64,000 nucleotides of DNA from positions 12,328 to 76,327 of the forward strand of contig JAISGI010000015.1 in assembly GCA_031263095.1 (NCBI GenBank), given 5' to 3'. Below, in pieces: positions 10,223 through 60,477 of the stretch. Position 1 is the stretch's first letter. Every line of letters starts with the position of its first letter. The DNA is from Rickettsiales bacterium. GTDB taxonomy: Bacteria; Pseudomonadota; Alphaproteobacteria; Rs-D84; CACZYB01. Under the pieces are notes generated by a model. The model saw nothing but the letters and a program-made list of their open reading frames with translations, ran no database searches and had not been told where the DNA came from. A program made the position numbers and the translations under genes.

Positions 10223-10800
10223 ATGACAAGGAACTATAAACGTACGGGGGGGGGCAAAAGGCTAAATACCTAGCGTTTACGCTTCTCCTACTATCAGCCA
10301 ACAACTCTCAATCAGCCAATTATTATACCTGCACAGCTTGCGCCGTGCCCGGTGTCTGCCAAGCCGGAGCAAGCACAGATTTTAATAAGTACAACGCTCC
10401 GCTCACACTTGCCGAGGCTACCGCCGCCATAGGAACACCCGCAACGAACAGGTGGACGCTTGTGGACGAGCAGCCAACCGCATACCAAGTAAAATGCGGC
10501 ACTCTTCCAACCGGAATATACCGTCTTGACGCATACAACTCGGTGGAATCCTACAGCTCGCAGATAGCCGTGCTCGATAAGCCGACGGATTATACCCTTT
10601 GGCTGAACGATAGTCCTACTCCTGGATTGAATGTAAGGATTTATATGGGGACCAATTCTTGCGGCGCTTTCAATGGCTGTAACGGTGAGAACTGCAAATT
10701 TATGATACTTGCGTCCACGAATTCCAGATATACGCCCGGCATAACGCTTGACGACATGAAGCATGCCGCAAGGAATGTCGCCATATATCGGCTTCAATAG
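10223..10800 (+). CDS. phase-variable small secreted Cys-motif protein, family copy A; G9 tract at 10246-10254 leaves it out of frame (ON at 10 G)
   Basis: Leader GTCAAACCAAAGGACAAGACCG-ATG (Shine-Dalgarno plus ATG at 10223). ATG ACA AGG AAC TAT AAA CGT ACG-G9 then hits TAG at 10271 with 9 G. With 10 G it reads MTRNYKRTGGGQKAKYLAFTLLLLSANNSQSANYYTCTACAVPGVCQAGASTDFNKYNAPLTLAEATAAIGTPATNRW...AIYRLQ (the frame of ORF 10345-10800). Confidence 0.8.
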
Positions 10801-10807
10801 GAAAAGG

Positions 10808-10874
10808 GCGCAGGGAAGATTGGCGGCACGGGCTTTGGTTAGACGCAAATACCTCCCGCCAATCTTCCTTGCGC
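10808..10874 (+). ncRNA. conserved structured 3'UTR element of the family (19-bp stem, ~30-nt loop carrying an anti-leader sequence)
   Basis: Stem GCGCAGGGAAGATTGGCGG pairs with CCGCCAATCTTCCTTGCGC, the only mismatch being a G·U pair in the sense transcript. The loop contains GCTTTGGTTAGACGC, complementary to the GTCTAACCAAAG leader. The same element follows copies B and K and, on the minus strand, copy D. Confidence 0.55.
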
Positions 10875-10891
10875 CCGAAACCTCAGGAATC

Positions 10892-12499
10892 TTAAACGCT
10901 CTTCCTAATTTCCTTGACCGCGGCGATAAGCGCGGTGGTCGAGGAATCATGCGCCGCAATGTCCGCGCTTTTCAGGTCGGCAACCACGGCCGAGGCAAGC
11001 TTTTTGCCAAGCTCCACCCCGAACTGGTCGAAACTGTTTATGTCCCACATTACCCCCTCGGCGAACGTCTTGTGCTCGTACAGGGCGACAAGCATGCCGA
11101 GCGAGGCAGGAGTGATTTTCCGCACCAAAAAAGTATTGCTCGGCCGGTTGCCCTCAAACGTCTTGAACGGCGCCAATAAATCGCCCGCAAGCTCCGGCGA
11201 ATCCGCGGCTCGCCCGCGCATAAGCGCCTCGGCCTGGGCAATACCGTTCGCGACAAGCTTTATATGGTGCTCGCCAAGCTCGTTGTGTGACAGCGCAGGT
11301 ATGATAAAGTCGCACATCATGGGCTTCGTGCCCTGGTGGATAAGCTGATAGAAGCTGTGCTGCCCGTTCGTGCCCTCCTCGCCGAACAACACGGGCGAGG
11401 TCTGGTATTTGACCGGCATGCCGTCGCGACCCACGTATTTCCCGTTGCTCTCCATGACAAGCTGTTGCAGGTATGAAGGCAGATAGGCGAGATAGTGGTC
11501 GTACGGCAACACGGCAAGCGTGTCCATGCCCAAAAAATTCGCATTCCATATTTCCATAAGCGCCATGATGATCGGGATATTTTGGCGGAAATCCGTGGAG
11601 CGGAAGTGTCGATCGGCCTCCGCCGCGCCGGCAAGCATGGCCTTGAAGTTTGCCGTGCCGATAGCTATCATGATTGCAAGCCCGATTGGCCCCCACATGG
11701 AATAGCGGCCGCCCACATAGTCGCCGAAGGGGAATACCTGTGCGGTCGGAATACCGAACTCGTTGGCAAGGCGCGCGTTGGTGGAAATCGCCGCGAAATG
11801 GTGCGCGACCGCGCTTGCGCCAAGCTTCTCGATAATCCAATTCCGGCACGTCGCGGCATTGGTCATCGTCTCGTCCGTGGTGAAGGTTTTCGACGATACT
11901 ATGAACAGGGTCGACTCCGGCTCCAGCCGCCGCAAAACCTCAGCCGTGTCCGTCCCGTCGACGTTCGAGATGAAGTGGAAATTGACAAGCGGCGACTTGT
12001 ACGGAAGCAGGGCATGGATAGCCATTTTTGGCCCAAGGAACGATCCGCCGATTCCTATATTCACCACGTCGAGGATTCGCCCCTTCTTCGCACCAGTGAA
12101 ACGTCCGTCCCTTACCCGCTCCGCAAACTCGCTTGTCGCCGCGAAAGTCTCGCGTATGTCGAGGGACACATTGCGCCCGTCCACGGTAAAGTCTTCGTCC
12201 ATGTTGCGAAGCGCGGCATGCAAAACGGCGCGGTTCTCGGTGAAGTTGATTTTCTTGCCAGCGAACATCGCTTCGATTGCCGAGGCCAAACCCGCCTGCT
12301 CCGCCATTTTTACAAGGAACCCGAGGGCTTTTTTATCCACAAGATTCTTGGAAAAGTCGAACATTATGTCGCCCAAGGCAAGGCTCATTTCGCCCGCCCG
12401 CTCCGGCTCTTGGTCGAACAGGTCGGTGATTTTATAGTCGCTTAAATAGGCTTGGTGCTTTTTAAGCTGGCCATAGGCCGACGTTTCGGTGAAATTCAT
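10892..12499 (-). CDS. pgi: glucose-6-phosphate isomerase
   Basis: 535 aa with typical PGI sequence (DYSKN...GGRYSMWGPIGL...HQGTKP). Confidence 0.9.
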   Translation of the reverse strand: MNFTETSAYGQLKKHQAYLSDYKITDLFDQEPERAGEMSLALGDIMFDFSKNLVDKKALGFLVKMAEQAGLASAIEAMFAGKKINFTENRAVLHAALRNMDEDFTVDGRNVSLDIRETFAATSEFAERVRDGRFTGAKKGRILDVVNIGIGGSFLGPKMAIHALLPYKSPLVNFHFISNVDGTDTAEVLRRLEPESTLFIVSSKTFTTDETMTNAATCRNWIIEKLGASAVAHHFAAISTNARLANEFGIPTAQVFPFGDYVGGRYSMWGPIGLAIMIAIGTANFKAMLAGAAEADRHFRSTDFRQNIPIIMALMEIWNANFLGMDTLAVLPYDHYLAYLPSYLQQLVMESNGKYVGRDGMPVKYQTSPVLFGEEGTNGQHSFYQLIHQGTKPMMCDFIIPALSHNELGEHHIKLVANGIAQAEALMRGRAADSPELAGDLLAPFKTFEGNRPSNTFLVRKITPASLGMLVALYEHKTFAEGVMWDINSFDQFGVELGKKLASAVVADLKSADIAAHDSSTTALIAAVKEIRKSV

Positions 12500-12602
12500 T
12501 TGCGTCTCCTTTTTGACCGGAGAATTTTAACATAGTATTTTATTGTTGTAAAGCCCACCTGTTTCTGGTATAATGGTATAGTCAAACCAAAGGAGAAGAC
12601 CG

Positions 12603-13200
12603 ATGACAAGGAACTATAAACGTACGGGGGGGGGCAAATAAGTATATAGCTACTGCGCTTCTTCTGGTTTCAGCCAACAACTCTCAATCTGCCAATTATT
12701 ACACCTGTACCGCCTGCACCGTACCTGGAGCATGCCAACCCGGGGCGACAACGGACTGCAGCCGGTACAACGATGTATATGCGACGGGCAATCAAGGCAA
12801 CGCGGACATGGTGGCTGCATGCATAGGTTCGCCCGACAAAAGCAGGTGGCAGCTTGTCGCCAAATACTCGCTGGGCGATACTGCGGGCAATGTTTCCTCC
12901 GGCAGTCTGACGCCCGGAATCTACCGGTTCGACGGCTATTATTCGGACGACAAATACGGCTATGGCATAGTAATATTCGACCACGAGGTCAAGTATGCGT
13001 TCAAAGATTTCATCTCCAACAGCGAATCCTGCTGCAACCGCATAGTAGTCAATGTGAACAACGAAGATGCGCTGACGCATAACGCACCTGGTACGCAAAC
13101 GGCGGACGTAGGAAATTATCAGGTCAAGGCCGTGCCGAACATAACCCTTTCGGATATGATTCGTACTGGCAAAACAGGCGCAATATACAAACTGAACTAG
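12603..13200 (+). CDS. phase-variable family copy B; G9 at 12626-12634 (ON at 8 G)
   Basis: Same leader (GTCAAACCAAAGGAGAAGACCG-ATG). At 9 G translation stops (..GGC AAA TAA). At 8 G it reads MTRNYKRTGGANKYIATALLLVSANNSQSANYYTCTACTVPGACQPGATTDCSRYNDVYATGNQGNADMVAACIGSPDKSRWQLVAK...GAIYKLN, joining ORF 12808-13200. The promoter has an extended -10 (TGGTATAAT) at about 12569. Confidence 0.8.
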
Positions 13201-13276: not shown

Positions 13277-13419
13277 CCAACTCTAAATAGATAAATATTT
13301 CAACCTTTTTTATTGTTTTTATGCCTGTGGTATGCAAAGGCAACTCGCCAGAGTTGTCCTGCATTCCACAGGCGTTTAGGCATGCTTTTTTCCTTGCTTT
13401 TGGCGCTCCCTTTTGCTAG

Positions 13420-21006: not shown

Positions 21007-21547
21007 ATGACATATATGAACAAAAAGCGTACGGGGGGGGGCAAATAAGTATTTAGTTATTGCGCTTCTCCTGATTTCGACTAACTCTCAATCTTCAAAT
21101 TACTATACCTGTACTGCCTGCGCCATACCCGGAGCATGTCAGGCCGGGGCAAACGCAGACTTTGACAAGTACAACACTCCACTTACGCTTGCCGAAGCTA
21201 CCGCCGCAATCGGCACGCCCTCAAAATCGAGATGGAGCCTTATAGATGGTGGCCATTTCGTCAACAAGCGCGGTACTCTCTCGCCCGGAGCTTACATGAT
21301 AAGCGGCAATGCCAGCATGTCCGCCGGAGGCTGCACGTCCCAGGTGGCGGTGTTCGACAGGGAAGTTGGCTATAACCTGCTTGCCGACGGCATAACGATA
21401 GACACGAACAACCCCGTGTTCAGCGGCACTACCTGGGGAGTGTATAGTCCAGCGGACTGCTCGGCAGACACGCTTCAGACTCCTGGCTGGAGCAAGGAGG
21501 ACATAACCGCCCAGTCTTTCGGCAGCTATATATACAAACTCCAATAA
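21007..21547 (+). CDS. phase-variable family copy C; G9 at 21033-21041 (ON at 8 G)
   Basis: Leader GTCTAACCAAAGGAGAAAGACGGCA-ATG. At 9 G it stops (AAA TAA). At 8 G it reads MTYMNKKRTGGANKYLVIALLLISTNSQSSNYYTCTACAIPGACQAGANADFDKYNTPLTLAEATAAIGTPSKSRWSLIDGG...GSYIYKLQ. Confidence 0.8.
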
Positions 21548-21565: not shown

Positions 21566-21612
21566 CCTGTGGAAAGTCGGCGACAACTTGTCAAGTTGTC
21601 CCGGCTTTCTAT
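21566..21612. repeat. REP-like palindrome with a degenerate right end
   Basis: CCTGTGGaaagtcggcgacaacttgtcaagttgtcccggctttCTATGG. Confidence 0.5.
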
Positions 21613-21772: not shown

Positions 21773-22358
21773 CTAGTTCAGCCGATAAATCGCGCTGCCA
21801 AGCCTTGTTCCGTAATGGTATATGTCGTCCTCGGCAAGTCCAGGTGTTCTTACGCCCTTGTCTAGGTATCCCGTGACGCGCGTGCTCTCCGTGGTATAGG
21901 TCGCATGGTCGAAGTCTATCATGGTGCACGATTGGTCGGAATATTGGTTGTACAGTTGATACGATATGTCCCTGTCCGCGACCACCACGCGCGAGTCGTA
22001 CATATTGCCACCGGTATAGTTGTCGAAGCGGTATATTCCCGGCGGCAGGGTTCCTCTAGGTTGAGAGTATTGTCCCTCGGCAAGCGCTTCGCCCGATACG
22101 ACCATAGTCCACCTGGCCTTGTCGGGCGTGCCGATGCATGCTGTCGCCTCCTCAAGCGAAAGAACTTTGCGCGGCGGACATTCGGCCGGAGGATTGGCGT
22201 ATTCGCTTACCGCGCCAGCAGAGCAAAATTTCGCGATTGTGCACGCGCTACAGGTGTAGTAATTAGCAGAGTTTGATTTGTTAGTAGATAATAAGAGAAG
22301 CGCAGTAGCTAAGAATAACTTATTTGCCCCCCCCCGTACGCATATCGTTCCTTGTCAT
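21773..22358 (-). CDS. phase-variable family copy D; C9 on the plus strand at 22327-22335 (ON at 8)
   Basis: The reverse strand reads GGTCAAACCAAAGGAGAAGACCG-ATG ACA AGG AAC GAT ATG CGT ACG-G9. At 8 G it gives MTRNDMRTGGANKLFLATALLLLSTNKSNSANYYTCSACTIAKFCSAGA...CIGTPDKARWTMVVSGE...AIYRLN. The promoter has an extended -10 (TGATATAAT). Confidence 0.8.
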
Positions 22359-23299: not shown

Positions 23300-23895
23300 A
23301 TGACAAGGAACTATAAACGTACGGGGGGGGGCAAAAGGCTAAATACCTAGCATTCGCGCTTCTCTTACTATCTGCCAATAACTCTCAATCAGCAAACTAC
23401 TACACCTGCTCGGCATGTGCTGTGCCTGAACTATGCAAAGCAGGCGCAGGCACGGACTTTGACAAGTACAACGCCCCACTCACACTTGCCGAGGCTACCG
23501 CCGCCATAGGAACGCCCGCAAAATCCCGTTGGACGCTTGTCGATTCATTCGAGGAATATGGAAGCAAGCCTGGCACTCTGTCGCCGGGACTATATAGAGT
23601 CGACGCCTCGGGCATCACAAGCGTCGGCTGCCTAAGAATATCGCAAACCGTGGCCATGTCCAAGGATACCGGATACATTATGAGGAGCAGCTCGCTCCCC
23701 GCCGAGGGGAATTGCGCAGGCTGCGCCGGAGTTGTATTCGACAGCAACAATGCAACATACTCGAGCGTTTCATACACGGTAGTGGCTCAAAATAGTACGG
23801 CCTACTCGCAAAGCTACACTCCTGGTATAACCCAAGATGACTTCGCGCCAGCCGATTGCTCCACTCACAAAACGGCGATTTATAGATTAAATTAA
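23300..23895 (+). CDS. phase-variable family copy E; G9 at 23323-23331 (ON at 10 G)
   Basis: Leader GTCAAACCAAAGGAGAAGACCG-ATG. At 9 G it stops at TAG. At 10 G it reads MTRNYKRTGGGQKAKYLAFALLLLSANNSQSANYYTCSACAVPELCKAGAGTDFDKYNAPLTLAEATAAIGTPAKSRWTLVD...TAIYRLN. The promoter has TGTAGTATAAT. Confidence 0.8.
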
Positions 23896-23917: not shown

Positions 23918-23967
23918 CCTGTGGTAAGCGGGAGATAACTTGAAAAGTTATCCTCGCTTTCCACAGG
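23918..23967. repeat. REP-like palindrome
   Basis: CCTGTGGtaagcgggagataacttgaaaagttatcctcgctttCCACAGG. Confidence 0.6.
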
Positions 23968-25886: not shown

Positions 25887-26446
25887 ATGAATATGAACGA
25901 AAAGCGTACGGGGGGGGGCGGAAGGCTAAGTATATAGCGACAGCGCTTCTCCTGATAGCCACTAACAACTCTCAATCTGCTAATTATTACACCTGCACCG
26001 CTTGCCCGGTACCGGGAACTTGCCCCGCCGGAAGCGTCAGGGATTGTCCCCTGAACCGCCACACATCTGCCGAAGAAGGCCTTGCCTGCGTCGGCGCGAA
26101 TCCGACATGGACGCTTGTCGATTCCATAAGCGGGTGCGGGCAGTCCGCTCAAAGCAAAAGTGTGCCCCTCCAACCGGGAGTATATAGGATAGAGGCTTGG
26201 CGTGCCGAGGGCTGGGGTTCTACCTTGGTTGCAATCGACCACACCCAAGACGCATTCCTGCAGTCCGACGGTGGAGGGCAGAAGTGGACTCTTGCTAACT
26301 TGGGCGACGCGAACGTATATCATGGAGGCGACGGCGGAGTAGGTTTCAATAGGTGGTTCTGGCATGACGGCCAATTCGCACCCGGCGCGCCTGCATCAAA
26401 CCAAATCCAAACCCCTTGCTCCGCAAGCGTGTATAAGCTGCAATAA
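25887..26446 (+). CDS. phase-variable family copy F; G9 at 25910-25918 (ON at 10 G)
   Basis: Leader GTCTAAACAAAAGGAGAAGACAACG-ATG AAT ATG AAC GAA AAG CGT ACG-G9-CGGAAGGCTAAG. At 10 G it reads MNMNEKRTGGGRKAKYIATALLLIATNNSQSANYYTCTACPVPGTCPAGSVRDCPLNRHTSAEEGLACVGANPTWTLVDS...SVYKLQ. Confidence 0.8.
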
Positions 26447-26477: not shown

Positions 26478-26527
26478 CCTGTGGTAAGCGGGAGATAACT
26501 TGAAAAGTTATCCTCGCTTTCCACAGG
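26478..26527. repeat. REP-like palindrome
   Basis: CCTGTGGtaagcgggagataacttgaaaagttatcctcgctttCCACAGG, identical in core to 23918 and 41501. Confidence 0.6.
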
Positions 26528-29902: not shown

Positions 29903-29954
29903 CCTGTGGAATCCGGAAATTATTTGCTGCGCAAATTATTCTGGATTCCACAGG
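29903..29954. repeat. REP-like palindrome (variant core)
   Basis: CCTGTGGaatccggaaattatttgctgcgcaaattattctggattCCACAGG. The centre differs from other copies but is still self-complementary. Confidence 0.6.
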
Positions 29955-30000: not shown

Positions 30001-30551
30001 ATGAATAAGAACGTATTACGTACGGGGGGGGGCAAAAGGCTAAATACATAGCATTCGCACTTCTCTTACTATCTGCCAACAACTCTCAATCTTCAAATTA
30101 TTACACTTGTACCGCATGCGCCTTACCAGGGGCTTGTCAGGCCGGAGCCACGCAAGACTGCAAATACAATGCAACCTTGAGCCTAGCAGAAGCGACCGCT
30201 TGCATAAGCGTTCCCGTTCAAGCCGACTGGGAGCTTGTCCGCTCGCAAGGCGATACACAGGAAACTTTCCAGCTCGCCGCGGGAGTATATAGGATAGACG
30301 CGAGAAGAGACGTCGAGACATGCCAATACGGGTACACTCCGACAAGTTATGTATTCGTCCTGGCCGAGCCGATGTACGTTTCAAGCGCCAATGTATGTAC
30401 GAATGGAGCCATAAGGTTTTACAAGTCGGCGCCGCCGGCCACTGAAGTATTCGCCATACACGCTTATTCAACCATATCGACTCCGGGCATAACCGCGGCG
30501 GATTTGTCATACCTTGAAAACGCTTCGCGCAAGTTTTATAAGTTGAAGTAG
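30001..30551 (+). CDS. phase-variable family copy G; G9 at 30024-30032 (ON at 10 G)
   Basis: Leader GTCTAACCAAAGGAGAAGACGACA-ATG. At 10 G it reads MNKNVLRTGGGQKAKYIAFALLLLSANNSQSSNYYTCTACALPGACQAGATQDCKYNATLSLAEATACISVP...KFYKLK. The promoter has TGTGATATAAT. Confidence 0.8.
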
Positions 30552-30562: not shown

Positions 30563-30608
30563 CCTGTGGAAAGGTGTGCAATCTAAAAGTTGTGCACGGT
30601 TCCACAGG
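30563..30608. repeat. REP-like palindrome (variant core)
   Basis: CCTGTGGaaaggtgtgcaatctaaaagttgtgcacggttCCACAGG. Confidence 0.6.
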
Positions 30609-30613
30609 TTTCT

Positions 30614-31483
30614 CTAATGCTTCATTTTCCCAAGCGGATGTCCGGCCTCGACCGCCTCGCGCAGATGTTCGGGCAGTATGTGGGTATAGATCTGCGTGGT
30701 CGAAATGTCGCTGTGCCCAAGCATGGCTTGCACTGCGCGCAGATCGCTTCCGCCCGCAAGCACATGCGATGCGAACGAGTGTCGAAACACGTGCGGCGAC
30801 ACCCGCGCGGGGTCAAGGCCGGCCGAAACGGCCGTGTCTTTCAACTCCTTGAGAAACGCGTTCCGCGTCAGGTGTCTGCTTGCGCCCTTGCCGGGAAAGA
30901 GGAACTTCGACCCCTCCGGCTTCCTGAATACCATCCATTTGCCAAGCTTTTCCATAATGCGACGGTTCAGGGGGACAAGCCGCTCTTTGCTGCCTTTGCC
31001 CATTACGCTAAGCGTCTCGCCCTTTATAATAGATGCAAGCGGCAGGCTGACAAGCTCGGACACCCGGAGCCCGGTTCCGTATAGAAGCTCAAGCATGAAG
31101 TCAAGCCTGACGCCTATCGCTGCTCCACGCTTTTCCGCCGATTCGATAAGCTTGTCCACCTCCGAGGGAGATAGGTATTTCGGAAGCGGACGTCCCGCCT
31201 TCGGCGGATACACGCCATCCGCTGGATTGGCCACAATCGCCCGCGACTCGAGCAGGAACTTGAAATAGCCTTTAAGCGCGGAAAGCTTCCTCGCCTGCGA
31301 CCGCGCCGCAATGCCCCGACCGGCAAGCATGCCAAGCCACGCTTTCACATCCTCGGTCGTCGCGGCCGTTGCGCCTCCAGCCACGGTTTTCTCGAATTCC
31401 TCAAGGTCGCGCCCGTACGCCGCGCATGTGGCAAGCGAAGCGCCCCTCTCCGCCATCATCATTTCAAGGAACTGCTTTATCAT
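30614..31483 (-). CDS. xerD: tyrosine recombinase XerD/XerC
   Basis: R...HxxR...Y catalytic pattern (VFRHSFASHVLAGGSDLRAVQAMLGHSDISTTQIYTHI). Confidence 0.8.
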   Translation of the reverse strand: MIKQFLEMMMAERGASLATCAAYGRDLEEFEKTVAGGATAATTEDVKAWLGMLAGRGIAARSQARKLSALKGYFKFLLESRAIVANPADGVYPPKAGRPLPKYLSPSEVDKLIESAEKRGAAIGVRLDFMLELLYGTGLRVSELVSLPLASIIKGETLSVMGKGSKERLVPLNRRIMEKLGKWMVFRKPEGSKFLFPGKGASRHLTRNAFLKELKDTAVSAGLDPARVSPHVFRHSFASHVLAGGSDLRAVQAMLGHSDISTTQIYTHILPEHLREAVEAGHPLGKMKH

Positions 31484-32103: not shown

Positions 32104-32154
32104 CCTGTGGAATCCGGAAATTATTTGCGAAGCAAATTATTCTGGATTCACAGG
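32104..32154. repeat. REP-like palindrome, preceded by CTAGAAATATTACAT (32068-32082)
   Basis: CCTGTGGaatccggaaattatttgcgaagcaaattattctggattCACAGG. Confidence 0.6.
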
Positions 32155-32201: not shown

Positions 32202-32808
32202 ATGACATATATGAACAAAAAGTGTACGGGGGGGGGCAGGTAAGTATATAGCTTTAGCGCTTCTCCTAATATCGACTCAATCACAATCTTCAAACTACTA
32301 TACTTGCACAGCTTGCGCATTGCCCGGTGCCTGCCAAGCGGGTGCGGCGCAAGACTGCAAATATAATGCAACCTTGAGCCTAGCCGAAGCGACCGCTTGC
32401 ATAGGAGTCCCGGAATTGAACAGATGGAAAGTCTATACCGGCGGCCACGTCTTGACGCCGGGCATATATAGGCACGACATAGAGAAGAACGCGGTTTCGC
32501 ACAGCTTGGGCCTTGAGGATGGAAGCGCGGTGTTCACCGTGGTGCAGAATTCCTATTTAGCCTGCTTCATCGGCAACGGCACATACGAAGGCACTAGCGG
32601 AATATCGAACTGCGGGTGCCAGGCCCGAACCGATGGCTCGAACGAGCCTTTTAACTATCAGCAGGCAGGCATACCGAAGTTCGCGGCGGGCGCGGCGCTT
32701 AGGACGGCGATACTCACTCCCGGCCTGACAAGCGAAACCCTGACCAAAGGAGAGACTTTGCCCACGTGGTGCAGATATACCCTGTACAAGCTTGACAGCG
32801 ATAGCTAG
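32202..32808 (+). CDS. phase-variable family copy H; G9 at 32228-32236 (ON at 8 G)
   Basis: Leader GTCTAACCAAAGGAGAAAGACGACA-ATG ACA TAT ATG AAC AAA AAG TGT ACG-G9. At 8 G it reads MTYMNKKCTGGAGKYIALALLLISTQSQSSNYYTCTACALPGACQAGAAQDCKYNATLSLAEATACIGVPELNRW...YTLYKLDSDS. Confidence 0.8.
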
Positions 32809-32828: not shown

Positions 32829-32879
32829 CCTGTGGGATTAGTGTGCAACTCTAACGGAGTTGTGCACGGATTCCACAGG
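32829..32879. repeat. REP-like palindrome (variant core)
   Basis: CCTGTGGgattagtgtgcaactctaacggagttgtgcacggattCCACAGG. Confidence 0.6.
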
Positions 32880-38459: not shown

Positions 38460-39020
38460 TTAATTCAGCTTGTACAAATACACCATGCCGGAAGTCCTGT
38501 CCATATCGGAAAGTGTGAGGCCGGGTGTGGCCATCCTTCCGCCGTTGGGGTTATTTGCGTACATTTGTGCTCCGTAAACCAAAACATTCTCTGCAGATCC
38601 CATATAAGGCGATTTGAAGAATACAAGGTCGGTGCAAGCATTGTTCAAACACCCTCCGGCATTCAACAGCGAATATATACGCACAGAGGCAGGCTGGTTC
38701 AATACCACTATGTTGGACGAGTAACTATTCCCGGCTACGTAGGCGTCTATGCGATAGACTCCAGGTGCGTAAAGGTTATCCGCTGAAGCGCTTATGCCAT
38801 TGCCGGGCGAAGAAGTTTGGGCGACGACCTGCCACCTCGATTTTTCCGGCGTTCCTATTGCTGCTGTCGCTTCTTCAAGCGTCAATACAGCATTGTACCT
38901 GCAATCTTGGGTGGCGCCGGATTGGCAGGCACCGGGCACGGCGCACGCCGAACAGGAATAATAGTTCGCCGCACCGGCTGGCATTGCCATAAGCATCACC
39001 ATTGCTAGTAGTTTTTTCAT
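38460..39020 (-). CDS. family copy I with no homopolymer tract: constitutive-type member with a standard signal peptide
   Basis: MKKLLAMVMLMAMPAGA-ANYYSCSACAVPGACQSGATQDCRYNAVLTLEEATAAIGTPEKSRWQVV...PGVYRIDAY...PGLTLSDMDRTSGMVYLYKLN. Shine-Dalgarno site AAGGAGG-ACTGA-ATG. It has all the family motifs but a different, uninterrupted leader. Confidence 0.85.
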   Translation of the reverse strand: MKKLLAMVMLMAMPAGAANYYSCSACAVPGACQSGATQDCRYNAVLTLEEATAAIGTPEKSRWQVVAQTSSPGNGISASADNLYAPGVYRIDAYVAGNSYSSNIVVLNQPASVRIYSLLNAGGCLNNACTDLVFFKSPYMGSAENVLVYGAQMYANNPNGGRMATPGLTLSDMDRTSGMVYLYKLN

Positions 39021-39348: not shown

Positions 39349-40014
39349 CTATTTTATTTTTGCAGCCCTGCGCAGCACCCATCCGGATTCTCTCTTCCAT
39401 ATTACGCCTCGTCGGATGACGGACGCCGGGTTTCCCGCAATCGCGGTGTGTTTTTCCGAAAAGCTCTTTGTGACCACTGCACCGGCGCCGACTATGGTGC
39501 CGTCGGGTATGGAAGCATTTTTCGTGAATATTGCGGCTTGCCCTATCCAGCAGTGCTCTCCTATACGCAGCGGATTCCGCGGATTGCTTATTATTTCACC
39601 GGACGCCGCCTCTATTATTGCGTGTCCTTCCGACGGGCGCAGGGTTGCGCTGTTTATCATACAGTCTTTCCCAATCTCGCACCGACATTCCTCCGACATT
39701 CGGATGAACATCGGGCCCGAGCTCAATCCCTCGTCGATGGTCAATGTCTGCTTCTCTCCGTCCGACATAAGAATGCGGAGCTCGTTTATGTGGAGTGGAC
39801 TGCGGATTTCGATTTTGCAGTCATCGGCAAGGCATTCGATACTGCAATTTTTCGCATTCGTCGGAAAGAAAAACTTCACAAGATTGTTTTTCCCGCCAAG
39901 GGTTATGGCAAAGCCCGGGACTTTTTCTCCATGGGCAAGCTCTCGCTCGTTGCCATTCTCGACTACGATTATCTTGTTATCGGTTCCCGTATCTGACACA
40001 GACGATTCTGCCAC
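39349..40014 (-). CDS. hexapeptide-repeat (LbH) acetyltransferase. A C9 contingency tract (plus-strand G9 at 40042-40050) lies upstream; at 10 C an N-terminal extension from the ATG at 40151 joins in frame
   Basis: The core ORF begins at the GTG at 40014 and contains LbH repeats (IGEHCWIGQAAIFTKNASIPDGTIVGAGAVV). From the ATG at 40151 the reading frame (MEIRKALVNLICIFVPNRGLRHRIRTICAKSAIYPPP...) runs through the C-tract. With 9 C it terminates at 39969 (60 aa). With 10 C it continues as ...PPPTFPDKSNTDVAESSVS... into the acetyltransferase. Confidence 0.7.
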   Translation of the reverse strand: MAESSVSDTGTDNKIIVVENGNERELAHGEKVPGFAITLGGKNNLVKFFFPTNAKNCSIECLADDCKIEIRSPLHINELRILMSDGEKQTLTIDEGLSSGPMFIRMSEECRCEIGKDCMINSATLRPSEGHAIIEAASGEIISNPRNPLRIGEHCWIGQAAIFTKNASIPDGTIVGAGAVVTKSFSEKHTAIAGNPASVIRRGVIWKRESGWVLRRAAKIK

Positions 40015-40152
40015 ATCCGTATTGGATTTATCAGGAAACGTGGGGGGGGGTAAATCGCTGATTTTGCACAGATTGTCCGTATTCTATGGCGCAAGCCTCT
40101 GTTTGGGACGAAAATGCATATAAGATTGACGAGAGCCTTGCGGATTTCCATT

Positions 40153-40857
40153 TTACATATCCGCCCGGGTCTTCACCACCTTGTCAATCAAGCCAAAGCC
40201 TTGGGCTTCCTCGGCGCTCATGAAGTTGTCCCGCTCGACCGCTGCGGCGACCTCGGCAATCGGCCGCCCGGTGTGGAATGCATAAAGCGAATTGAGCTTC
40301 TCCCTGGTCTTCAAAATCTCCCGCGCGTGAATCTCGATGTCCGTGGCCTGACCTTGGTACCCGCCAAGCGGCTGGTGTATCATTATGCGCGAGTTGGTAA
40401 GCGCGAATCGCTTGCCCTTCGCACCGCCGGCGAGCAGAAACGAGCCCATCGAGCACGCCTGGCCAAGACAAAGCGTGGCCACATCCGGCTTGACGTACTG
40501 CATGGTGTCGTATATTGCAAGACCCGATGTCACTACACCGCCTGGCGAGTTTATGTACATGAATATGTCCTTGTCCGGGTTCTCCGACTCGAGAAACACA
40601 AGCTGCGCCACGACGAGCGAGGCCGAGGCATCGTTTATCTCACCGTTGATGAAGATTATACGCTCCTTGAGTAGGCGCGAGAATATGTCGAAACTCCGCT
40701 CGCCGCGGGCCGTCTGCTCGATTACATAGGGTATGAAATTCATTGAATCATCCATTTGAGGCTCCTTTTTTAAGAAGAGTCTAACATACTTTTTAGCCGT
40801 TGTAAAGCCTGTGGAAAGCCAAACGGTTATCCTCGCTTTCCACAGGAAAAATAACAA
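40153..40857 (-). CDS. clpP: ATP-dependent Clp protease proteolytic subunit
   Basis: Ser-His-Asp triad context ([14 protein letters not shown]...MIHQP). Confidence 0.9.
40808..40846. repeat. REP-like palindrome plus GGACTAGAATTATTACAAT motif (40861-40879, minus orientation)
   Basis: CCTGTGGaaagccaaacggttatcctcgctttCCACAGG. The motif's TAG is the stop codon of copy J. Confidence 0.55.
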
Positions 40858-40878: not shown

Positions 40879-41439
40879 CTAGTCCAGCTTATATATTGCT
40901 GCTTTGCCTTCCGAGCCTATGTCGTCACTTGTTATCCCTGGAGTAGTGATTACAACCGACGGTGCGTTATCTCTGACAGCCTGCTGTATATACCAATTAG
41001 GGTCATTGGGCTTGCGCGTCCATATCCACCCGCATAATAAACCGTCGCATTCAATTGTATGTTCCAAGTATCCTGTACGATTGTCGGGAATAACAGCCAC
41101 TCCGGAGCGTTTGTTGTTTGCAGCGCGTATGACGTCGAACCTATACACCCCTGGCACAAGCTCGACCGACTGATGATCTCCGGCAAATGCACTTTGCTTC
41201 ACAAGACTCCACCTTGATTTCTCGGGAGTACCTATGCAGCGTGTTGCCTCCTCAAACGAAAGTATGTTTTCTGTATAGGCGCAATCCTTTGTCATTCCTG
41301 CCTGACAAGCCCCTGGTACAGAACAATTGGTACAGGTATAGTAGTTTGATGATTGAGAGTTGTTGGCTGAAATCAGGAGAAGCGCAATAGCTAAATACTT
41401 ATTTGCCCCCCCCCGTACGCTTTTTGTTCATAATACTCA
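40879..41439 (-). CDS. phase-variable family copy J; C9 at 41405-41413 (ON at 8)
   Basis: The reverse strand reads GTCTAACCAAAGGATAAAGACATTA-ATG AGT ATT ATG AAC AAA AAG CGT ACG-G9. At 8 it gives MSIMNKKRTGGANKYLAIALLLISANNSQSSNYYTCTNCSVPGACQAGMTKDCAYTENILSFEEATRCIGTPEKSRWSLV...AAIYKLD. The promoter is TTGACA, 18-nt spacer, TATAGT. Confidence 0.8.
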
Positions 41440-41500
41440 TTAATGTCTTTATCCTTTGGTTAGACAATTATACTATATCATCATTTATTATTGTTGTCAA

Positions 41501-41550
41501 CCTGTGGTAAGCGGGAGATAACTTGAAAAGTTATCCTCGCTTTCCACAGG
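41501..41550. repeat. REP-like palindrome
   Basis: CCTGTGGtaagcgggagataacttgaaaagttatcctcgctttCCACAGG. Confidence 0.6.
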
Positions 41551-45814: not shown

Positions 45815-46416
45815 ATGACATATATGAACAAAGTACGTACGGGGGGGGGCAAAAGGCTAAATACATAGCATTCGCACTTCTCTTACTATCTGCCAATAAC
45901 TCTCAATCATCCAATTATTATACCTGTACCGCATGCACAATTCCTGGCGCATGCCAGGCTGGAGCGACGCAAGAGTGCACATACAACGTAATGCTTACTA
46001 AGGCAAGCGCGATAGGTTGTTTCGGCTCGCCCTCCAAGGAAAGTTGGACGCTTGTGGACAAGGTAACAAGCGGCAACAGGTCCGGCACCTTGCAAAAGGG
46101 AATATATAGGTTCGAGGCTATAATCCCCGGTCATCCCGGCCATGCAAGCACAGCCGCAGTGGTCTTCGACCACCCGGTCGGCTATATAATGTACAGGCAA
46201 GCCTCAACCGGAACGCCGGGTTGGCCTAACATCACATGCGACGCATGCCCTGGAATCCTTGTGGATTTGAACAGTCAGACATACTCCGGTGCGTCGCTGT
46301 TCTTCGTGGCAAACGGCGCTGGTATCGGGACAGGCTCGAATGTTCCAAATATAACAACCGAAGCCGACATGGATTCCGCTTCAGGAGTGCACGCGGCTAT
46401 ATACAAGCTGAACTAG
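45815..46416 (+). CDS. phase-variable family copy K; G9 at 45841-45849 (ON at 10 G)
   Basis: Leader GTCAACCAAAGGAGAAGACAATA-ATG ACA TAT ATG AAC AAA GTA CGT ACG-G9. At 10 G it reads MTYMNKVRTGGGQKAKYIAFALLLLSANNSQSSNYYTCTACTIPGACQAGATQECTYNVMLTKASAIGCFGSPSKESWTLVD...AAIYKLN. The promoter has TGGTATATT. Confidence 0.8.
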
Positions 46417-51315: not shown

Positions 51316-51883
51316 ATGAATAAGAACATACTGCGTACGGGGGGGGGCAAATAAGTATATAGCTACTGCGCTTCTCCTAATATCGGCTCAAACTCAATCT
51401 TCAAATTATTACACCTGCACAGCTTGCCCGCCTTTGCGCGACGCACCTGCCGGCTCGACCAGCTGCAAGCCGACCGGCGCGACTTGCCCAAAAAACCGCT
51501 TCCTGACCCTGGCCGAAGTTGAAAGTTGCCTCGGCGACATAGCGCTTGCCGAATGGGGCGAGGCGATCTTCACCGCGAGTATGAATAATCCGTCGCAAAC
51601 TCCGACAACTGTACAGCCGGGAATCTATAGGGCCGATACGTTCTACAATAATACATCGCTGGATGCCTCCGCGATATTCGTCGCGGACAAGCCCTTGGGT
51701 CTAAGCTTCCAGCATTCCTCGGACAATTTCTCCGTCCGCATAGATGCGGATAACGCGACGTATGCAAACCCTACCTCAAGCCTTGGCAACTGTAGCGTTT
51801 GCTCGCAAAACAGAACCGTAGAAACGCCGAACGTCGTGAACTATCCATCCGGCGCCAACAAAGGCTATCTGTACAGGCTCTAG
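51316..51883 (+). CDS. phase-variable family copy L; G9 at 51339-51347 (ON at 8 G)
   Basis: Leader GTCTAACCAAAGGAGAAAGACG-ATG AAT AAG AAC ATA CTG CGT ACG-G9. At 8 G it reads MNKNILRTGGANKYIATALLLISAQTQSSNYYTCTACPPLRDAPAGSTSCKPTGATCPKNRFLTLAEVESCLG...GYLYRL. It is preceded by ACTAGAATTATTACAAT (51233-51249) and a promoter with TATTATAT. Its stop overlaps the 3' end of the lipoprotein gene on the opposite strand. Confidence 0.8.
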
Positions 51884-54026: not shown

Positions 54027-54561
54027 TCAGTTCAGACGATATATGGCGCCATACATTCCCGCGGCCTGGTCGGACAGATTGGGAGTGTGCATATTGAAGT
54101 CATACATGAGATAAGTCTTGCCGTCGGTGGCGTCGTTCGTTATCCTGGCAGTAGGGTTGACTCCTGCCGTAGGGTCGGAATCTCCCACAAAATATTCGGA
54201 CGCGCGGTCGACTATCACTATGCCAGACGACCTTGTGTTGTTCGCAACCGCGTCTAGCCTATAGATTCCCGCCTGTACTTGGCCGGTTTTCTGTTCGGCT
54301 CCATTAGCTCTGTCTATAAGAGTCCACGCAGACTCGGCTGGGGAACCGACGCACCGCGCGACCTCGCCCGGATAGCCCCAATTGGTAAGCAGCCTGTTAT
54401 AGGTACAGTCGGATACGGCCCCGGCTTGGCACGCCCCCGGTACAGCACAAGCTGTACAAGTATAATAATTTGATGATTGAGAGTTGTTGGTAGATAATAG
54501 GAGAAGCGCTAAAGCTAAATACTTATTTGCCCCCCCCCGTACGTTTATAGTTCCTTGTCAT
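54027..54561 (-). CDS. phase-variable family copy M; C9 at 54530-54538 (ON at 8)
   Basis: The reverse strand reads GTCTAACCAAAGGAGAAGACAG-ATG ACA AGG AAC TAT AAA CGT ACG-G9. At 8 it gives MTRNYKRTGGANKYLALALLLLSTNNSQSSNYYTCTACAVPGACQAGAVSDCTYNRLLTNWGYPGEVARCVGSPAESAWTLID...GAIYRLN. The promoter is TTGACA, 17-nt spacer, TATTAT. Confidence 0.8.
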
Positions 54562-54619: not shown

Positions 54620-54669
54620 CCTGTGGAAAGCCAGAATAACTCGGGAGAGTTATTCTGGCTTTCCACAGG
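54620..54669. repeat. REP-like palindrome
   Basis: CCTGTGGaaagccagaataactcgggagagttattctggctttCCACAGG. Confidence 0.6.
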
Positions 54670-55991: not shown

Positions 55992-56586
55992 TTAGTCAAG
56001 CTTGTATATTGCGACAGTAGGGTCTATCGTGTATATCATGTCCGAGACAGTTATACCGGGGACATATGATACAGTGCTTGGCTTTTGGGTACTACTATTC
56101 GCATTGATCGTGTGGTACCTGCCACCACAGTTGTTGAAGCGTTGCACTGTTGTCCAGTCTTCGGACGAGTTATCTATGCATACATGTGCTCCGCTGTCTA
56201 CGAATTTACCGCTCCAGGTGCCATAGTCGGTGTCTTGGGCAAGCACTACAATCCGTGATGTCCAGCTTGCCTCGGTATGCCACAAATCTACGCGATAGAT
56301 TCCGGGCGAAAGCATGCCAAGCTTTTGCGGCCCCCGAGGACCCTCTTCTTTTTTAACAAGCGTCCATCTGGATTTAGCGGGCGTACCTATACAGCGGACA
56401 GCTTCTTCCAAAGACAAAGTTTTGTCATAAGTGCAATCCTTGGTCGCACCAACTTGACACGCACCCGGCACTGCACAGGTCGAGCATGTGTAATAATTTG
56501 CTGAATAGGATTGGTTAGCTGATATTAGGAGAAGCGCAACAGCTATATACTTATTTGCCCCCCCCCATACGTATATTATTCCTCAT
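55992..56586 (-). CDS. phase-variable family copy N; C9 at 56558-56566 (ON at 8)
   Basis: The reverse strand reads GTCAAACAAAAGGAGAAGACCGATA-ATG AGG AAT AAT ATA CGT ATG-G9. At 8 it gives MRNNIRMGGANKYIAVALLLISANQSYSANYYTCSTCAVPGACQVGATKDCTYDKTLSLEEAVRCIGTPAKSRWTLV...VAIYKLD. The promoter is TTGACG, 17-nt spacer, TATAGT. Confidence 0.8.
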
Positions 56587-56648: not shown

Positions 56649-57410
56649 TTAAATCTTAAATTTCATGCCAAGGTAAAAGGCATTCGCCTCGACATCGACT
56701 ATGGCCGTGGTCGCGATGGTGTTTATGCCTGTGTCGATAAGCATGCCGCCGCTCAGCTCGCCATAGCTTATGTGGCGCCAGCCGAACTCGACCGCAATAC
56801 GCTCGCTCACGTCCGCATTCGCGCCAAGCATGACTTGCCACCCGAACCCAGCTTCTCTGATGCTTGCGCCCGAAAGGATGGTCGGCCCGCCGCGGCCCCA
56901 AAGGTCGAACTCGGCCGACAGCAGGGTAATGCCAAACCCTATTCCGACATAAGGGGTTATGACGCTGGTATTGCCAAAGTCGTAATAGCCGTTCAACATA
57001 AGGGCCGATGCTTTGAAATTGTCCGTCTCTCTAATCGCCTCGACTTTGACGCCCCCGGCGATAATAAGCTCGCCCTCGGTTCGTAATTCTCCGCTTTTGC
57101 TTCCATAGGCAAGAGTAAGGCCGCCGGGCTTTGCCGTCGCGTCAAGCGCGAACGCCCCGCCAAGGCTTACATCCACATCCATGTTGCGGTAGGCCAAAAG
57201 CCGCGCGGCTATGTACCCGCCGTCTTTGCCCATAGAGGTCATAGGGACGGGTGCCGGCTCGACAACAACCGCCTCGGGTGGCGGCATTGCGATAGAGGCA
57301 GGTTTCGGCGTTCCGAATTTGGCCTGGAATTCCGCCTCGCGCTCCTCAAGACTCTGCGCCCGCACGCCAAAGGCAGACAATGTAGCTATTATGAATGCAA
57401 ATTTTCTCAT
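56649..57410 (-). CDS. outer-membrane beta-barrel porin-family protein (Omp25/RopB-like)
   Basis: Signal peptide (MRKFAFIIATLSAFGVRAQS), alternating beta-strand pattern and a C-terminal ...FYLGMKFKI. Confidence 0.6.
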   Translation of the reverse strand: MRKFAFIIATLSAFGVRAQSLEEREAEFQAKFGTPKPASIAMPPPEAVVVEPAPVPMTSMGKDGGYIAARLLAYRNMDVDVSLGGAFALDATAKPGGLTLAYGSKSGELRTEGELIIAGGVKVEAIRETDNFKASALMLNGYYDFGNTSVITPYVGIGFGITLLSAEFDLWGRGGPTILSGASIREAGFGWQVMLGANADVSERIAVEFGWRHISYGELSGGMLIDTGINTIATTAIVDVEANAFYLGMKFKI

Positions 57411-57535: not shown

Positions 57536-58119
57536 ATGATTATTATGAACAAAAAGCGCACGGGGGGGGGCGGCGGCGGAATGCTAAGTATAGAGCAACT
57601 GCGCGTCTCTTACTATCAGCTAACAACTCTCAATCATCAAATTATTATACCTGTACAAACTGCGCTGTACCCGGCGCTTGCCAAGCTGGCGCCACGGCGG
57701 ACTGTACTTATGGCCAATTCCTATCCCTTGAGGGAGCGGCGCGTTGTTTAGGAACTCCAGCGAAAACCAGATGGACGGAAGTCTATAGGTGTACAAACAA
57801 CTGCTCTTCTTCTGCAGGAGGTTTTCCAAAAGGAGTCTACAGGTTCGATCTCAAGAACTCGAAAACCGTATATTCACGCGTCTTTATATCGTTATATGAT
57901 ACGAAGCTATACAGCTTCCAGCGCGCCTGCAACGGGGTTGAAGACCGAGCGTGCGTGGGAATGCTGTGCGGCCCATCACAGACGTTCGACGAATGCAACC
58001 GATGGGCAGGAATGAACGAAAATTCAACAGCGCCGCAGATATTCACTCCGGGCATAACGGCCGATGACATAACGAACCCAAGTGCCGGGTCAATTGTGGT
58101 GTATAGGCTCGAGGGATAG
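57536..58119 (+). CDS. phase-variable family copy O; G9 at 57562-57570 followed by (CGG)3 (ON at 10 G)
   Basis: Leader GTCTAATTGAAAGGAGAAGACGAAA-ATG ATT ATT ATG AAC AAA AAG CGC ACG-G9-CGGCGGCGG. At 9 G it yields a 71-aa out-of-frame product (ORF 57536-57751). At 10 G it reads MIIMNKKRTGGGRRRNAKYRATARLLLSANNSQSSNYYTCTNCAVPGACQAGATADCTYGQFLSLEGAARCLGTPAKTRWTEV...IVVYRLEG. Confidence 0.8.
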
Positions 58120-58132
58120 AGGAACTCGGGCC

Positions 58133-58163
58133 CCTGTGGAAATCTGCCCGGGATTTCCACAGG
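58133..58163. repeat. short REP-like palindrome
   Basis: CCTGTGGaaatctgcccgggatttCCACAGG. Confidence 0.55.
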
Positions 58164-58226
58164 TTTCATAAATTGTCTTGCATTCCACCCGCGGTCAATA
58201 TATCTTTGAGCCGTGGGAGGAACAAG

Positions 58227-58397
58227 ATGAAGAAAGCCATCATCGCCGTGCTGCTTGCCTCGTGCGGCTCGATTTATGAAACCGACCCGGTCGGAGTCGG
58301 ATACGACGCGAACGAGCTCAAGCTTTCGCCGTGCGCCTGCATCCAGGTTGAAACCCTGCCGGGGCTGCCCGAATGGTTCGCAAGCGCGATAGCGTAA
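58227..58397 (+). CDS. small lipoprotein (56 aa; VirB7-like?)
   Basis: A GGAGG Shine-Dalgarno site precedes the ATG at 58227. Lipobox MKKAIIAVLLASC-GS. Confidence 0.4.
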   Translation: MKKAIIAVLLASCGSIYETDPVGVGYDANELKLSPCACIQVETLPGLPEWFASAIA

Positions 58398-59149: not shown

Positions 59150-59844
59150 GAAAGTCCGGGGTAATCCTTGTCATTTCGAGCTTTTTGTGCCTTGCCGCAG
59201 CGGTGCTTTGCATCTATGCGGCGCTTGGATTTTCGGACAGCCTCGAACGCGACCGCCTGCGTGTGCTTGTAGTTGTGAAAGAGGACGGCCGCGGACTCGA
59301 CTTTTCCGCGACCCCGCTCAAAATGCCGGCCCTTTCGGCTGCGCGGCGCGAGGAGCTTCTTAAAAAGCTTATAGTGGAGTATATAGTCGCGCGCTATACG
59401 TGGACGGGAAGCGCAACCGAGTCGCGGCGCATATTCGGCGGATGGGGCAAGGATATGGCCTCGGGCTCGCTGTTCAAGCTTGCCTCGCTCGCCACGTTCG
59501 ATCCGGAAAGGCCGGACGCGCCGCCGTACCTTGCGCCCTATTACGACTTTATGAAAGAGAAAGAGGAAATCCGCAGGCTTTCCGAATCTGGCACCACGCG
59601 CACGGTCGAAATTACCGTGCCTCCACGGCGGTACAAGGACGATATGTGGATAGCCGAGGTCGAGTTCGTCTATAAGGGCCCGGCCGTATGGAATCTCGCC
59701 CAGGCCAACCGAGAGAAGTACGAGCTCCAGATGACAATCGAGCCCATTACCGATCTTCGTACACCTACGGCCGCAATGCTCCTGAATCTGCCGTCCGCTG
59801 TGTTCGAATGGCGCATTGTCTGGTTCAAGCGCGTGGTGAAGTAG
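59137..59844 (+). CDS. second VirB8-like bitopic membrane protein, low confidence
   Basis: TM helix (VILVISSFLCLAAAVLCIYAAL) then ...LIVEYIVARYTW...; paralogous in architecture to the preceding gene. Confidence 0.35.
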   Translation: MARMRKSGVILVISSFLCLAAAVLCIYAALGFSDSLERDRLRVLVVVKEDGRGLDFSATPLKMPALSAARREELLKKLIVEYIVARYTWTGSATESRRIFGGWGKDMASGSLFKLASLATFDPERPDAPPYLAPYYDFMKEKEEIRRLSESGTTRTVEITVPPRRYKDDMWIAEVEFVYKGPAVWNLAQANREKYELQMTIEPITDLRTPTAAMLLNLPSAVFEWRIVWFKRVVK

Positions 59845-59860
59845 GACATTGGGGATATAA

Positions 59861-59895
59861 AAAAAGGCCGGTAAAACCTTGGCCTTTTTTCGGTT
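59861..59895. terminator. bidirectional terminator
   Basis: aaaaaaGGCCggtaaaaccttGGCCttttttcgg. Confidence 0.6.
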
Positions 59896-59909
59896 TTATT
59901 TTAGATTGC

Positions 59910-60477
59910 TCAGTTTAGTTTATACAGGGCAGCGACTGTATCCTCGCTATATGCCGCGATTGCGGTTTGCAGGGTTATGCCCGGCGTCCATATTCCTTGA
60001 TTGGCCGAGGAAACAACACGGTCATTACCTGGACCGGGCGCTCCGCCAGTATATCCTGCGTTCGGAAGCGCGATGGCTCCGCTTCCAGCCCAATACTGTA
60101 CATTTGAAGTCTTGTCCAAGACTATGACGCCGGAAGAAAACCGAGGATTTCCACCATTTTTCAGGAATCCGTCAAGCCTATAGACGCCCGGGCCGACGGA
60201 TGTTCCCCCGCCGTCGCCAGAGGTGTATTTCTGGACTAGGTTCCAGCGGCCGGCGGCCGGAGTACCTATGCATGCCGTCGCCTCCTCGAGGCTTGACATC
60301 TTGTTCATTGTGCATACAGGTTTGACTGCTGTACCAGCAGGGCAAGTTTCGGAAATATCGCACGCACTACAAGTGTAATAATTTGAAGATTGAGAGTTGT
60401 TAGCAGATAATAGGAGAAGCGCAATAGCTAAATACTTATTTGCCCCCCCCCGTACGTACTGTGTTCATAACAGTCAT
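59910..60477 (-). CDS. phase-variable family copy P; C9 at 60443-60451 (ON at 8)
   Basis: The reverse strand reads GTCTAACCAAAGGAGAAGACATA-ATG ACT GTT ATG AAC ACA GTA CGT ACG-G9. At 8 it gives MTVMNTVRTGGANKYLAIALLLLSANNSQSSNYYTCSACDISETCPAGTAVKPVCTMNKMSSLEEATACIGTPAAGRWNLV...AALYKLN. The promoter is TTGACT, 17-nt spacer, TATATAAT. Confidence 0.8.

Follow-up and report, generated by a model that had tools for sequence, protein, structure and literature searches.

Why would a bacterium keep, scattered among its housekeeping genes, a family of secreted proteins in which nearly every copy is thrown out of frame by a run of exactly nine guanines? This question is raised by a window of 64 kb (the whole stretch of DNA that was analysed, with 54% G+C) from a metagenome-assembled genome (MAG), i.e. 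from a population consensus. The MAG, which is labelled Rickettsiales bacterium at NCBI, carries LBL52 locus tags, comes from JGI metagenome 3300042612 and includes a contig of 105,376 bp. Fifteen paralogous genes of the window bear a G9 tract shortly after the start codon, and it is likely that the family is a set of contingency loci in which slipped-strand mispairing at poly-G switches each copy individually, the assembly reporting the mode of the population.

The G9 tracts and the genes that carry them

The G/C homopolymers of at least 7 nt in the window are 16 in number and all of them measure exactly 9; the G/C runs end at a length of 5, after which nothing is found until 9 (0 of length 6-8). 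Words of seven Gs were observed 48 times, against 9.5 expected from the shuffled window. Fifteen of the 16 tracts fall in paralogous genes for secreted, Cys-rich proteins, 17-26 nt past the ATG, and these 15 share a 5' module: i) a TTGACA-like -35 box and an extended -10 element (TGnTATAAT), ii) GTC(A/T)AACCAAAGGAGAAGAC with a strong Shine-Dalgarno sequence (AAAGGAG), iii) the ATG, 6-9 codons ending in ...CGT AC, the G9 and then the signal peptide, whose hydrophobic core ends in ...NNSQS and is followed by (A/S)NYYTC(T/S)AC..PG.C..G. The product is a secreted, Cys-rich protein of ~17 kDa, a beta-sandwich in its AlphaFold2 (AF2) model, and the codons of the tract, for Gly-Gly(-Gly), belong to the n-region of the signal peptide. 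The family genes sit singly between housekeeping genes, each as its own transcription unit, and the other genes of the window are core housekeeping ones (dnaG, parE, pgi, gyrB, lptF/G, lptD, surA, clpP, rho, serS, fabD/G and nrdD).

Decoding from the ATG reproduces the two switch classes that a first-pass annotation of this DNA had described, six copies which need one G more and nine which need one G less. The class A genes, in frame only at 7 or 10 G, are all on the + strand and occupy positions 10223-10800 (G9 at 10246-10254), 23300-23895 (G9 at 23323-23331), 25887-26446 (G9 at 25910-25918), 30001-30551 (G9 at 30024-30032), 45815-46416 (G9 at 45841-45849) and 57536-58119 (G9 at 57562-57570). 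The class B genes, in frame only at 8 or 11 G, are found on both strands: on the + strand at 12603-13200 (G9 at 12626-12634), 21007-21547 (G9 at 21033-21041), 32202-32808 (G9 at 32228-32236) and 51316-51883 (G9 at 51339-51347), and on the - strand, with their starts at 22358, 41440, 54561, 56586 and 60477, at 21773-22358 (tract 22327-22335, C9 on the + strand), 40879-41440 (tract 41406-41414), 54027-54561 (tract 54530-54538), 55992-56586 (tract 56558-56566) and 59910-60477 (tract 60443-60451). The sequence 3' of the tract is CAAAAGGCTAAA or CGGAAGGCTAAG in class A and CAAATAAG or CAGGTAAG in class B; the motifs quoted previously hold except for copy 57536, whose tract (57562) is followed by CGGCGGCGGAATGCTAAG.

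None of the 15 tract-bearing copies is in frame at 9 G. The full protein of each of them, decoded at 8 or 10 G, has 177-201 aa, and the product at 9 G has 10-17 aa, or 71 aa for copy 57536 alone. It had been stated that translation terminates within 3-8 codons after the tract, which is approximate: class A stops after five codons, class B already after one sense codon (GGC AAA TAA), and the 71-aa product of copy 57536 also falls outside that range.

A sixteenth member of the family was found by tblastn of the window with all family proteins. This gene (P0009, LBL52_01755; 38460-39020, - strand) has no tract and is an intact open reading frame (ORF) of 186 aa, with an ordinary signal peptide (MKKLLAMVMLMAMPAGA, followed by ANYYSCSAC), its own extended -10 promoter (TGcTATAAT) and a 5' untranslated region of ~110 nt, and it is presumably expressed constitutively. 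The earlier statements that every family copy is OFF at 9 G, and that the reference state is globally silent, must be restricted for this reason to the tract-bearing copies. Two further relatives without a tract, P0008 (Logan assembly) and P0005 (LBO78 MAG), also have ordinary signal peptides, which end, as in P0009, just before (A/S)NYY(T/S)C. Because the tract-less relatives have ordinary signal peptides, the mature N-terminus can be set at (A/S)NYY(T/S)C and the G9 leader regarded as an added switch.

The coding regions behind the tracts have been kept intact. After the tract, all 15 window copies show 166-189 open codons in the downstream frame, and the proportion of nonsynonymous differences (pN) is lower than that of synonymous ones (pS) in 120 of 120 paralogue pairs, synonymous sites being saturated (median pS 0.74); the 5' module is far better conserved, with 76-78% nucleotide identity. 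Intact ORFs together with pN < pS rule out pseudogene decay. Re-initiation after a short leader ORF has also been ruled out, since no start codon in the correct frame is located near the stop.

Seven further family copies were found on three other contigs of the MAG (L016, L017 and L023), all of them with G9 and out of frame, one of class A and six of class B. This gives 22 copies with tract DNA (15 in the window and 7 elsewhere), or 23 counting the database entry P0001, and thus at least 23 on the contigs examined. In the 22 copies the distance from the ATG to the tract is 17, 20, 23, 26 or 29 nt, always 2 mod 3, and indels of +3 and +6 nt behind the tract leave the class unchanged; the register between ATG, tract and body is maintained. 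The same three contigs hold two tracts in promoter spacers, a G9 in TTGACA-N6-G9-TAAAAT and a G8 in TTGACA-N6-G8-TAGAAT; altogether the length is 9 in 24 of the 25 tracts of the MAG. One of these contigs also encodes MutL (L016, 1-1121), adjoining a VirD4/TraG-type coupling protein.

The two classes amount to no more than the two registers in which a copy can be out of frame. A single indel that is not a multiple of 3 separates them, the 4-nt AGGC, and in the tree of mature proteins they are interspersed, with pairs such as 23323 (A) and 21033 (B), 30024 (A) and 32228 (B), or 45841 (A) and 54530 (B). The leader types MTRNYKR, MxxMNKKR and MNKNxLR are present in both classes. From these patterns, 5' modules have evidently been exchanged among copies, and the mixing of the classes in the tree has probably come about through 5' gene conversion. 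The first-pass annotation saw in the two classes, which are mutually exclusive at any common tract length, a built-in means of limiting co-expression. That exclusiveness is arithmetic and not a mechanism, and the proposed limit is unsupported: the tract lengths of the loci are unlinked, every locus is driven by a promoter of its own and both classes are interspersed in the mature-protein tree. A value of (2/3)^15 for the absence of any copy ON at 9 overstates the case because paralogues inherit their frame by descent; the part that is not trivial is the uniform tract length, rather than the missing ON-at-9 class.

With respect to the organism, a database search gave matches to the window only in NCBI MAGs labelled Rickettsiales bacterium, with LBL52 and LBO78 locus tags. 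The GyrB of the MAG is 75-79% identical to that of several other uncultured alphaproteobacterial MAGs and ~65% to that of Magnetospirillum and Rhodospirillales, which places the MAG, as judged by this protein, in an uncultured alphaproteobacterial clade. The family itself has no Pfam or NCBIfam match, its AF2 model has no significant match in the PDB, and no relationship to any described protein family was detectable. Faint precomputed matches to PF07699 (Ephrin-receptor-like / GCC2_GCC3) occur on the relative P0005 only, with none on P0009; the NYYTCxxCxxPGxCxxG motif resembles the Cys-rich repeats of PF07699, but the family is not a member of it.

A profile search of 1.8 billion representative proteins gave 79 relatives, and nearly all the close ones are gene calls of the LBL52 MAG that begin just past the Cys motif, a pattern typical of a gene caller misled by the frameshift. 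The public entries that the MAG has for this family (P0002-P0004, P0007, P0010, P0013-P0015, P0017 and P0018; for example those at 10345-10800, 23422-23895 and 51434-51883) are all N-truncated; they start at an internal GTG, TTG or ATG and have no signal peptide. P0001 has been extended spuriously in the upstream direction, across the promoter. In the databases the family is thus systematically misannotated. Giant proteins with PKD repeats also appeared among the profile matches; their similarity is probably weak and Ig-like or compositional, and they were not used. A 50-aa query gave no match in a large protein database, DNA-pattern scans for the Shine-Dalgarno module (GTCNAACCAAAGGAGAAGAC) returned chance matches only, with no poly-G nearby, and in the literature neither an earlier description of the family nor one of poly-G phasomes in MAGs was found. 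No paper turned up for the JGI sample or its accessions either; such samples may derive from termite guts.

Slipped-strand switching and the competing explanations

If the family consists of contingency loci, each copy would be a separate unit with a sigma-70-type promoter and a strong Shine-Dalgarno sequence, and replication slippage would alter its tract by one G in either direction. The gain of one G in class A, or its loss in class B, would bring the ATG into frame with the body of the gene, and each locus would switch independently and reversibly. The consensus would then show the commonest length at each locus, a mutational attractor at G9 that leaves all tract-bearing copies out of frame, and individual cells would express a small random subset of the family plus the one constitutive tract-less paralogue. 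Related to this, two of the properties by which a contingency locus is recognised were found in the family genes: the repeat is inside the ORF near its 5' end, and a change of one unit restores an intact ORF. We infer the heterogeneity at the family loci, the switching rates, the surface exposure and the benefit, which would be the variation of an exposed antigen or ligand.

The behaviour of G tracts in Campylobacter jejuni offers a basis for this attractor. The poly-G/C tracts of this species have a modal length of 9, with G6-G8 nearly absent, and tracts of G8 mostly gain a base whereas those of G10-G11 mostly lose one (PMC3401435). A birth-death chain with the rates of that study (PMC3401435) has a neutral stationary distribution of 49% G9, 28% G10 and 15% G8, and under these rates a single clone would have G9 at all 22 loci with a probability of ~1e-7. 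A clonal isolate should show a mix of lengths across loci, and a metagenome consensus the mode (9) at each locus. With these borrowed rates, which are illustrative and not measured here, class A copies would be ON in ~34% of cells and class B copies in ~17%, so that ~5 of the 23 copies would be expressed per cell.

Direct evidence that such tracts do change comes from relatives of the MAG. Three of them, with GyrB identities of 76-77% and assembled by other pipelines, were compared: L020 (ENA ERZ27264051, MEGAHIT), L021 (JGI 3300010049) and L022 (ENA). Their tracts measure 9 in 6 of 7, 7 of 7 and 2 of 2 cases, respectively, none being 7, and the same distribution of runs (up to 5 and then 9) is seen across the four different assemblies. 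Over 18,787 bp the sequences of L020 and L021 differ at a single tract only, which is G8 in the former (9803-9810) and G9 in the latter (9802-9810). It belongs to the second of two TupA-like ATP-grasp genes, which is full length (ON) at 8 and N-truncated (OFF) at 9, so that this pair of sequences constitutes direct evidence that tracts of the lineage change at the DNA level and toggle a gene. The region is syntenic with parE-pgi-gyrB of the window, with different accessory genes between the same housekeeping genes. Among the options put forward in the first-pass annotation, a consensus modal length over a heterogeneous population is the best supported, in view of the nature of the MAG, the G9 mode of C. 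jejuni and this G8/G9 difference.

Several observations weigh against contingency switching at the family loci themselves. The 22 family tracts show no length variation, all being 9 in a single assembly of the organism, and this uniformity leaves room for a G9 that is fixed. Exact look-ups of the N-truncated gene products of the window found no second assembly of the family loci, and family-profile scans of genome and metagenome contigs found no close relative carrying the tract-bearing family. A copy strongly selected to be ON should show 8 or 10 in the consensus, and none does. Finally, the rates were taken from the distant C. jejuni, which reportedly has no MutL-type mismatch repair, and the MAG encodes MutL; unlike C. 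jejuni, it does not look obviously deficient in mismatch repair.

The explanation that survives best beside this one refines it and keeps the same mechanism. The out-of-frame state at 9 could be an evolved default-OFF design with two kinetic classes, in which each copy is ON in a minority of cells and unequal rates of insertion and deletion at G9 make the classes differ in ON frequency and dwell time. Asymmetric indel rates are documented in C. jejuni (PMC3401435), no tract-bearing copy is in frame at 9 (0 of 22, or 0 of 23 with P0001) while other genes in the relative are, and the promoter-spacer tracts give sub-optimal spacers of 14-15 or 19 nt at the observed length. Nevertheless, the classes are inherited by descent, and a null model with one founder and one indel yields no ON-at-9 class about 1 time in 3; 5' gene conversion also spreads a frame without selection, and the rates used are those of C. 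jejuni. Such a design is possible, although we hold it only tentatively.

A different answer would be that the G9 is fixed in the DNA and that the genes are decoded in a programmed manner, by slippage of RNA polymerase or by a ribosomal shift on GGG, all copies being weakly and constantly expressed. Class A would need an insertion (or a -1 frameshift) and class B a deletion (or a +1 frameshift). This would account for all 22 family tracts being exactly 9 and each one step out of frame, and for the registers from tract to ATG and from tract to body, which have been kept through several indels; besides, a homopolymer of 9 nt has about the length of the RNA-DNA hybrid, as transcriptional slippage demands. 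It is established that transcriptional slippage rescues frameshifted genes at poly(A) tracts of insect endosymbionts, and likewise at A/T runs of Escherichia coli, Thermus dnaX and Shigella mxiE; to our knowledge, the cases described concern A/T runs and not G runs. As for the ribosome, no stimulatory structure was detected in the 80 nt 3' of the tract (folding z of -0.7 to +1.6 against shuffled sequences), and there is neither a Shine-Dalgarno-like element before the tract nor a stop codon adjoining the shift site. Moreover, a tract of the same kind differs in a relative at the DNA level, ordinary enzymes contain G9 in frame and would be harmed by efficient slippage, and G9 or G8 is also present in promoter spacers, where decoding at the RNA level is irrelevant. 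The slippage option of the first-pass annotation, transcriptional or translational, has thus gained no positive support, and programmed decoding of either sort is unlikely. Similarly unlikely is its narrower form, a selected and fixed G9 read by slippage at the RNA level, with insertion of a G in class A and deletion of one in class B; if true, it would be a non-heritable, transcript-level lottery over more than 20 paralogues and the first programmed transcriptional recoding at a G run.

The weakest candidate is an artefact of sequencing or assembly, with lengths miscalled or collapsed to 9 and genes truly in frame, which homopolymers being error-prone, 24 of 25 MAG tracts reading 9 and the NCBI and JGI gene callers giving only N-truncated ORFs might suggest, but which is very improbable: one miscalled length cannot serve both classes (A needs 10 and B needs 8), G8 is reported in the same assembly, relatives from other pipelines have G9 in frame in conserved enzymes, and the gap between 5 and 9 is shared by four assemblies and agrees with the genomes of cultured C. 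jejuni. The G8 means that the assembly can report lengths other than 9, and an assembler cap at this length is ruled out by it. Three ordinary enzymes of L021 contain a tract that keeps the frame at 9, namely an SDR (...MGGGSIVNISS...), an APH/choline-kinase-like protein and a TupA-like ATP-grasp protein, so that the length 9 is called correctly where the frame provides a check. The earlier worry about assembly or polishing errors is largely answered by these enzymes, the G8 of the MAG and the L020/L021 difference.

The sixteenth tract and neighbouring elements

The only tract of the window outside the family is a C9 at 40042-40050 (- strand), between clpP and the gene of a hexapeptide O-acetyltransferase (39349-40014, - strand), just upstream of the latter or inside its 5' end. 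Immediately behind the clpP stop there is a candidate ATG that shares the frame of the acetyltransferase only at 7 or 10 C. The best solved relatives of this protein are the polysialic-acid O-acetyltransferases OatWY and NeuO, with a similarity that covers the C-terminal hexapeptide domain alone (E = 5e-18). NeuO of E. coli K1 is phase-variable via repeats in the 5' coding region, and the acetyltransferase of the window may be a phase-variable modifier of a surface glycan. The non-family G9 tracts (40042-40050 in the window, L017 6253-6261, seven in L021 and two in L022) have TA as the next two bases in 10 of 11 cases, as in G9-TAAAAT, G9-TAGAAT and G9-TAGCAT. Several of them are clearly contiguous with a -10 hexamer and have TTGACA at a distance of 6 nt on the upstream side, which gives a spacer of 15 nt at G9. 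The preference for G9TA extends to coding tracts.

Palindromes of the form CCTGTGGAAAGC...GCTTTCCACAGG, long and near-perfect, with stems of 13-25 bp and folding energies of -21 to -45 kcal/mol, are found beside nearly all family genes, on one side or on both. They were located at 10131-10180, 13325-13371, 21567-21612, 23919-23966, 26479-26526, 29904-29953, 30564-30610, 32105-32150, 32830-32878, 40809-40845, 41502-41549, 54621-54668 and 58134-58162; three copies are identical, none has T-runs, and the half-site was observed 30 times against 3.2 expected. They could be elements like the repetitive extragenic palindromic (REP) ones, terminators, insulators or traces of cassette mobility.

Other genes of the surroundings deserve mention. 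An ORF at 2060-5014 (+ strand) encodes 984 aa with 104 cysteines, in repeats such as CVAGTYCPQGSTSSVPCVPGDYC that resemble both the N-terminal repeats of P0005 and the NYYTCxxCxxPGxC motif of the family; it has no Pfam or NCBIfam match, and its true start is likely MRKVLLFLAAFVMANGAFA. Small genes for outer membrane protein (OMP) beta-barrels with weak similarity to the Opacity family are present in L022 (21632-22111), in the window (56649-57410, - strand) and in L023 (10619-11269). The first has a G9 (21568-21576) in its promoter region, and the other two adjoin family copies. Finally, a gene for a XerC/D-type tyrosine recombinase (30614-31483, - strand), probably the housekeeping Xer, lies between the copies of opposite class at 30001-30551 and 32202-32808.

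Significance and comparison with known systems

The system is a new example of a known bacterial switching trick and not a new mechanism. It stands out by its host, an uncultured alphaproteobacterium, by a family that numbers at least 23 copies on the contigs examined, and by the density of G9 in the lineage. Almost all work on contingency loci has so far concerned cultured pathogens such as Neisseria, Haemophilus, Campylobacter and Helicobacter. The present lineage, for which metagenomes are the only source, has a very dense G9 phasome: a tract occurs every ~3-4 kb of the stretches examined, and to this phasome belongs a new family of secreted proteins, more than 20 in number, that is gated at the signal peptide. 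Such switching systems can be read directly from MAGs, with two warnings: gene callers truncate the family genes, so that every database entry from this MAG lacks the signal peptide, and a consensus assembly gives the mutational mode and not the expression state of any cell. Copies of different class lie only 1-2.5 kb apart, which makes the locus suitable for tests of independent switching.

By analogy, the closest functional counterpart is the opa family of Neisseria, whereas the chemistry of the tracts is that of the Campylobacter phasome. The opa genes are dispersed single paralogues with their own promoters and with CTCTT repeats in the region coding for the leader peptide, most copies being out of frame. 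The likeness (PMC3745409) consists in scattered paralogues, own promoters, a repeat in the leader peptide that sets the frame, and independent switching. The present genes differ in having a G homopolymer instead of a pentamer, an alphaproteobacterial host and about twice the copies (at least 23). In addition, Opa (PF02462) is an eight-stranded barrel whereas these products are small, secreted, Cys-rich beta-sandwich proteins, in which no homology to Opa was found.

The genome of C. jejuni comprises ~1.6 Mb and 31% G+C, against 54% here; it also differs in that MutL is present in the MAG and that most tracts of the window belong to one paralogous family. The likeness to its phasome is found in G/C homopolymers mostly on the coding strand near the 5' ends of surface-related genes, with mode 9, few tracts of G6-G8 and changes of +/-1, and C. 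jejuni has intergenic or promoter tracts too, as does the lineage of the MAG (PMC3401435). The tract density is ~10 times that of C. jejuni, with 16 in 64 kb in the window and 7 in 18.8 kb in the relative, compared with 11-29 per C. jejuni genome (PMC3401435).

Resemblances to two other systems are more partial. The Hop genes of H. pylori also form a paralogous family of surface proteins with a simple repeat in the 5' region coding for the signal peptide. In several of them (sabA, hopZ, oipA and babB) CT repeats in the signal-sequence region turn translation ON and OFF; unlike the G9 of the present family, this repeat is a dinucleotide, is found in some members only and belongs to proteins of a different fold. 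In the slippage rescue at poly(A) in Buchnera and Blochmannia, as here, a conserved long homopolymer puts out of frame genes that are otherwise intact. However, in those endosymbionts the runs are A/T and occur in housekeeping genes, with no family that has a dedicated leader, whereas here the tract is of G, the products are accessory secreted proteins and a tract of the same kind has changed at the DNA level in a relative.

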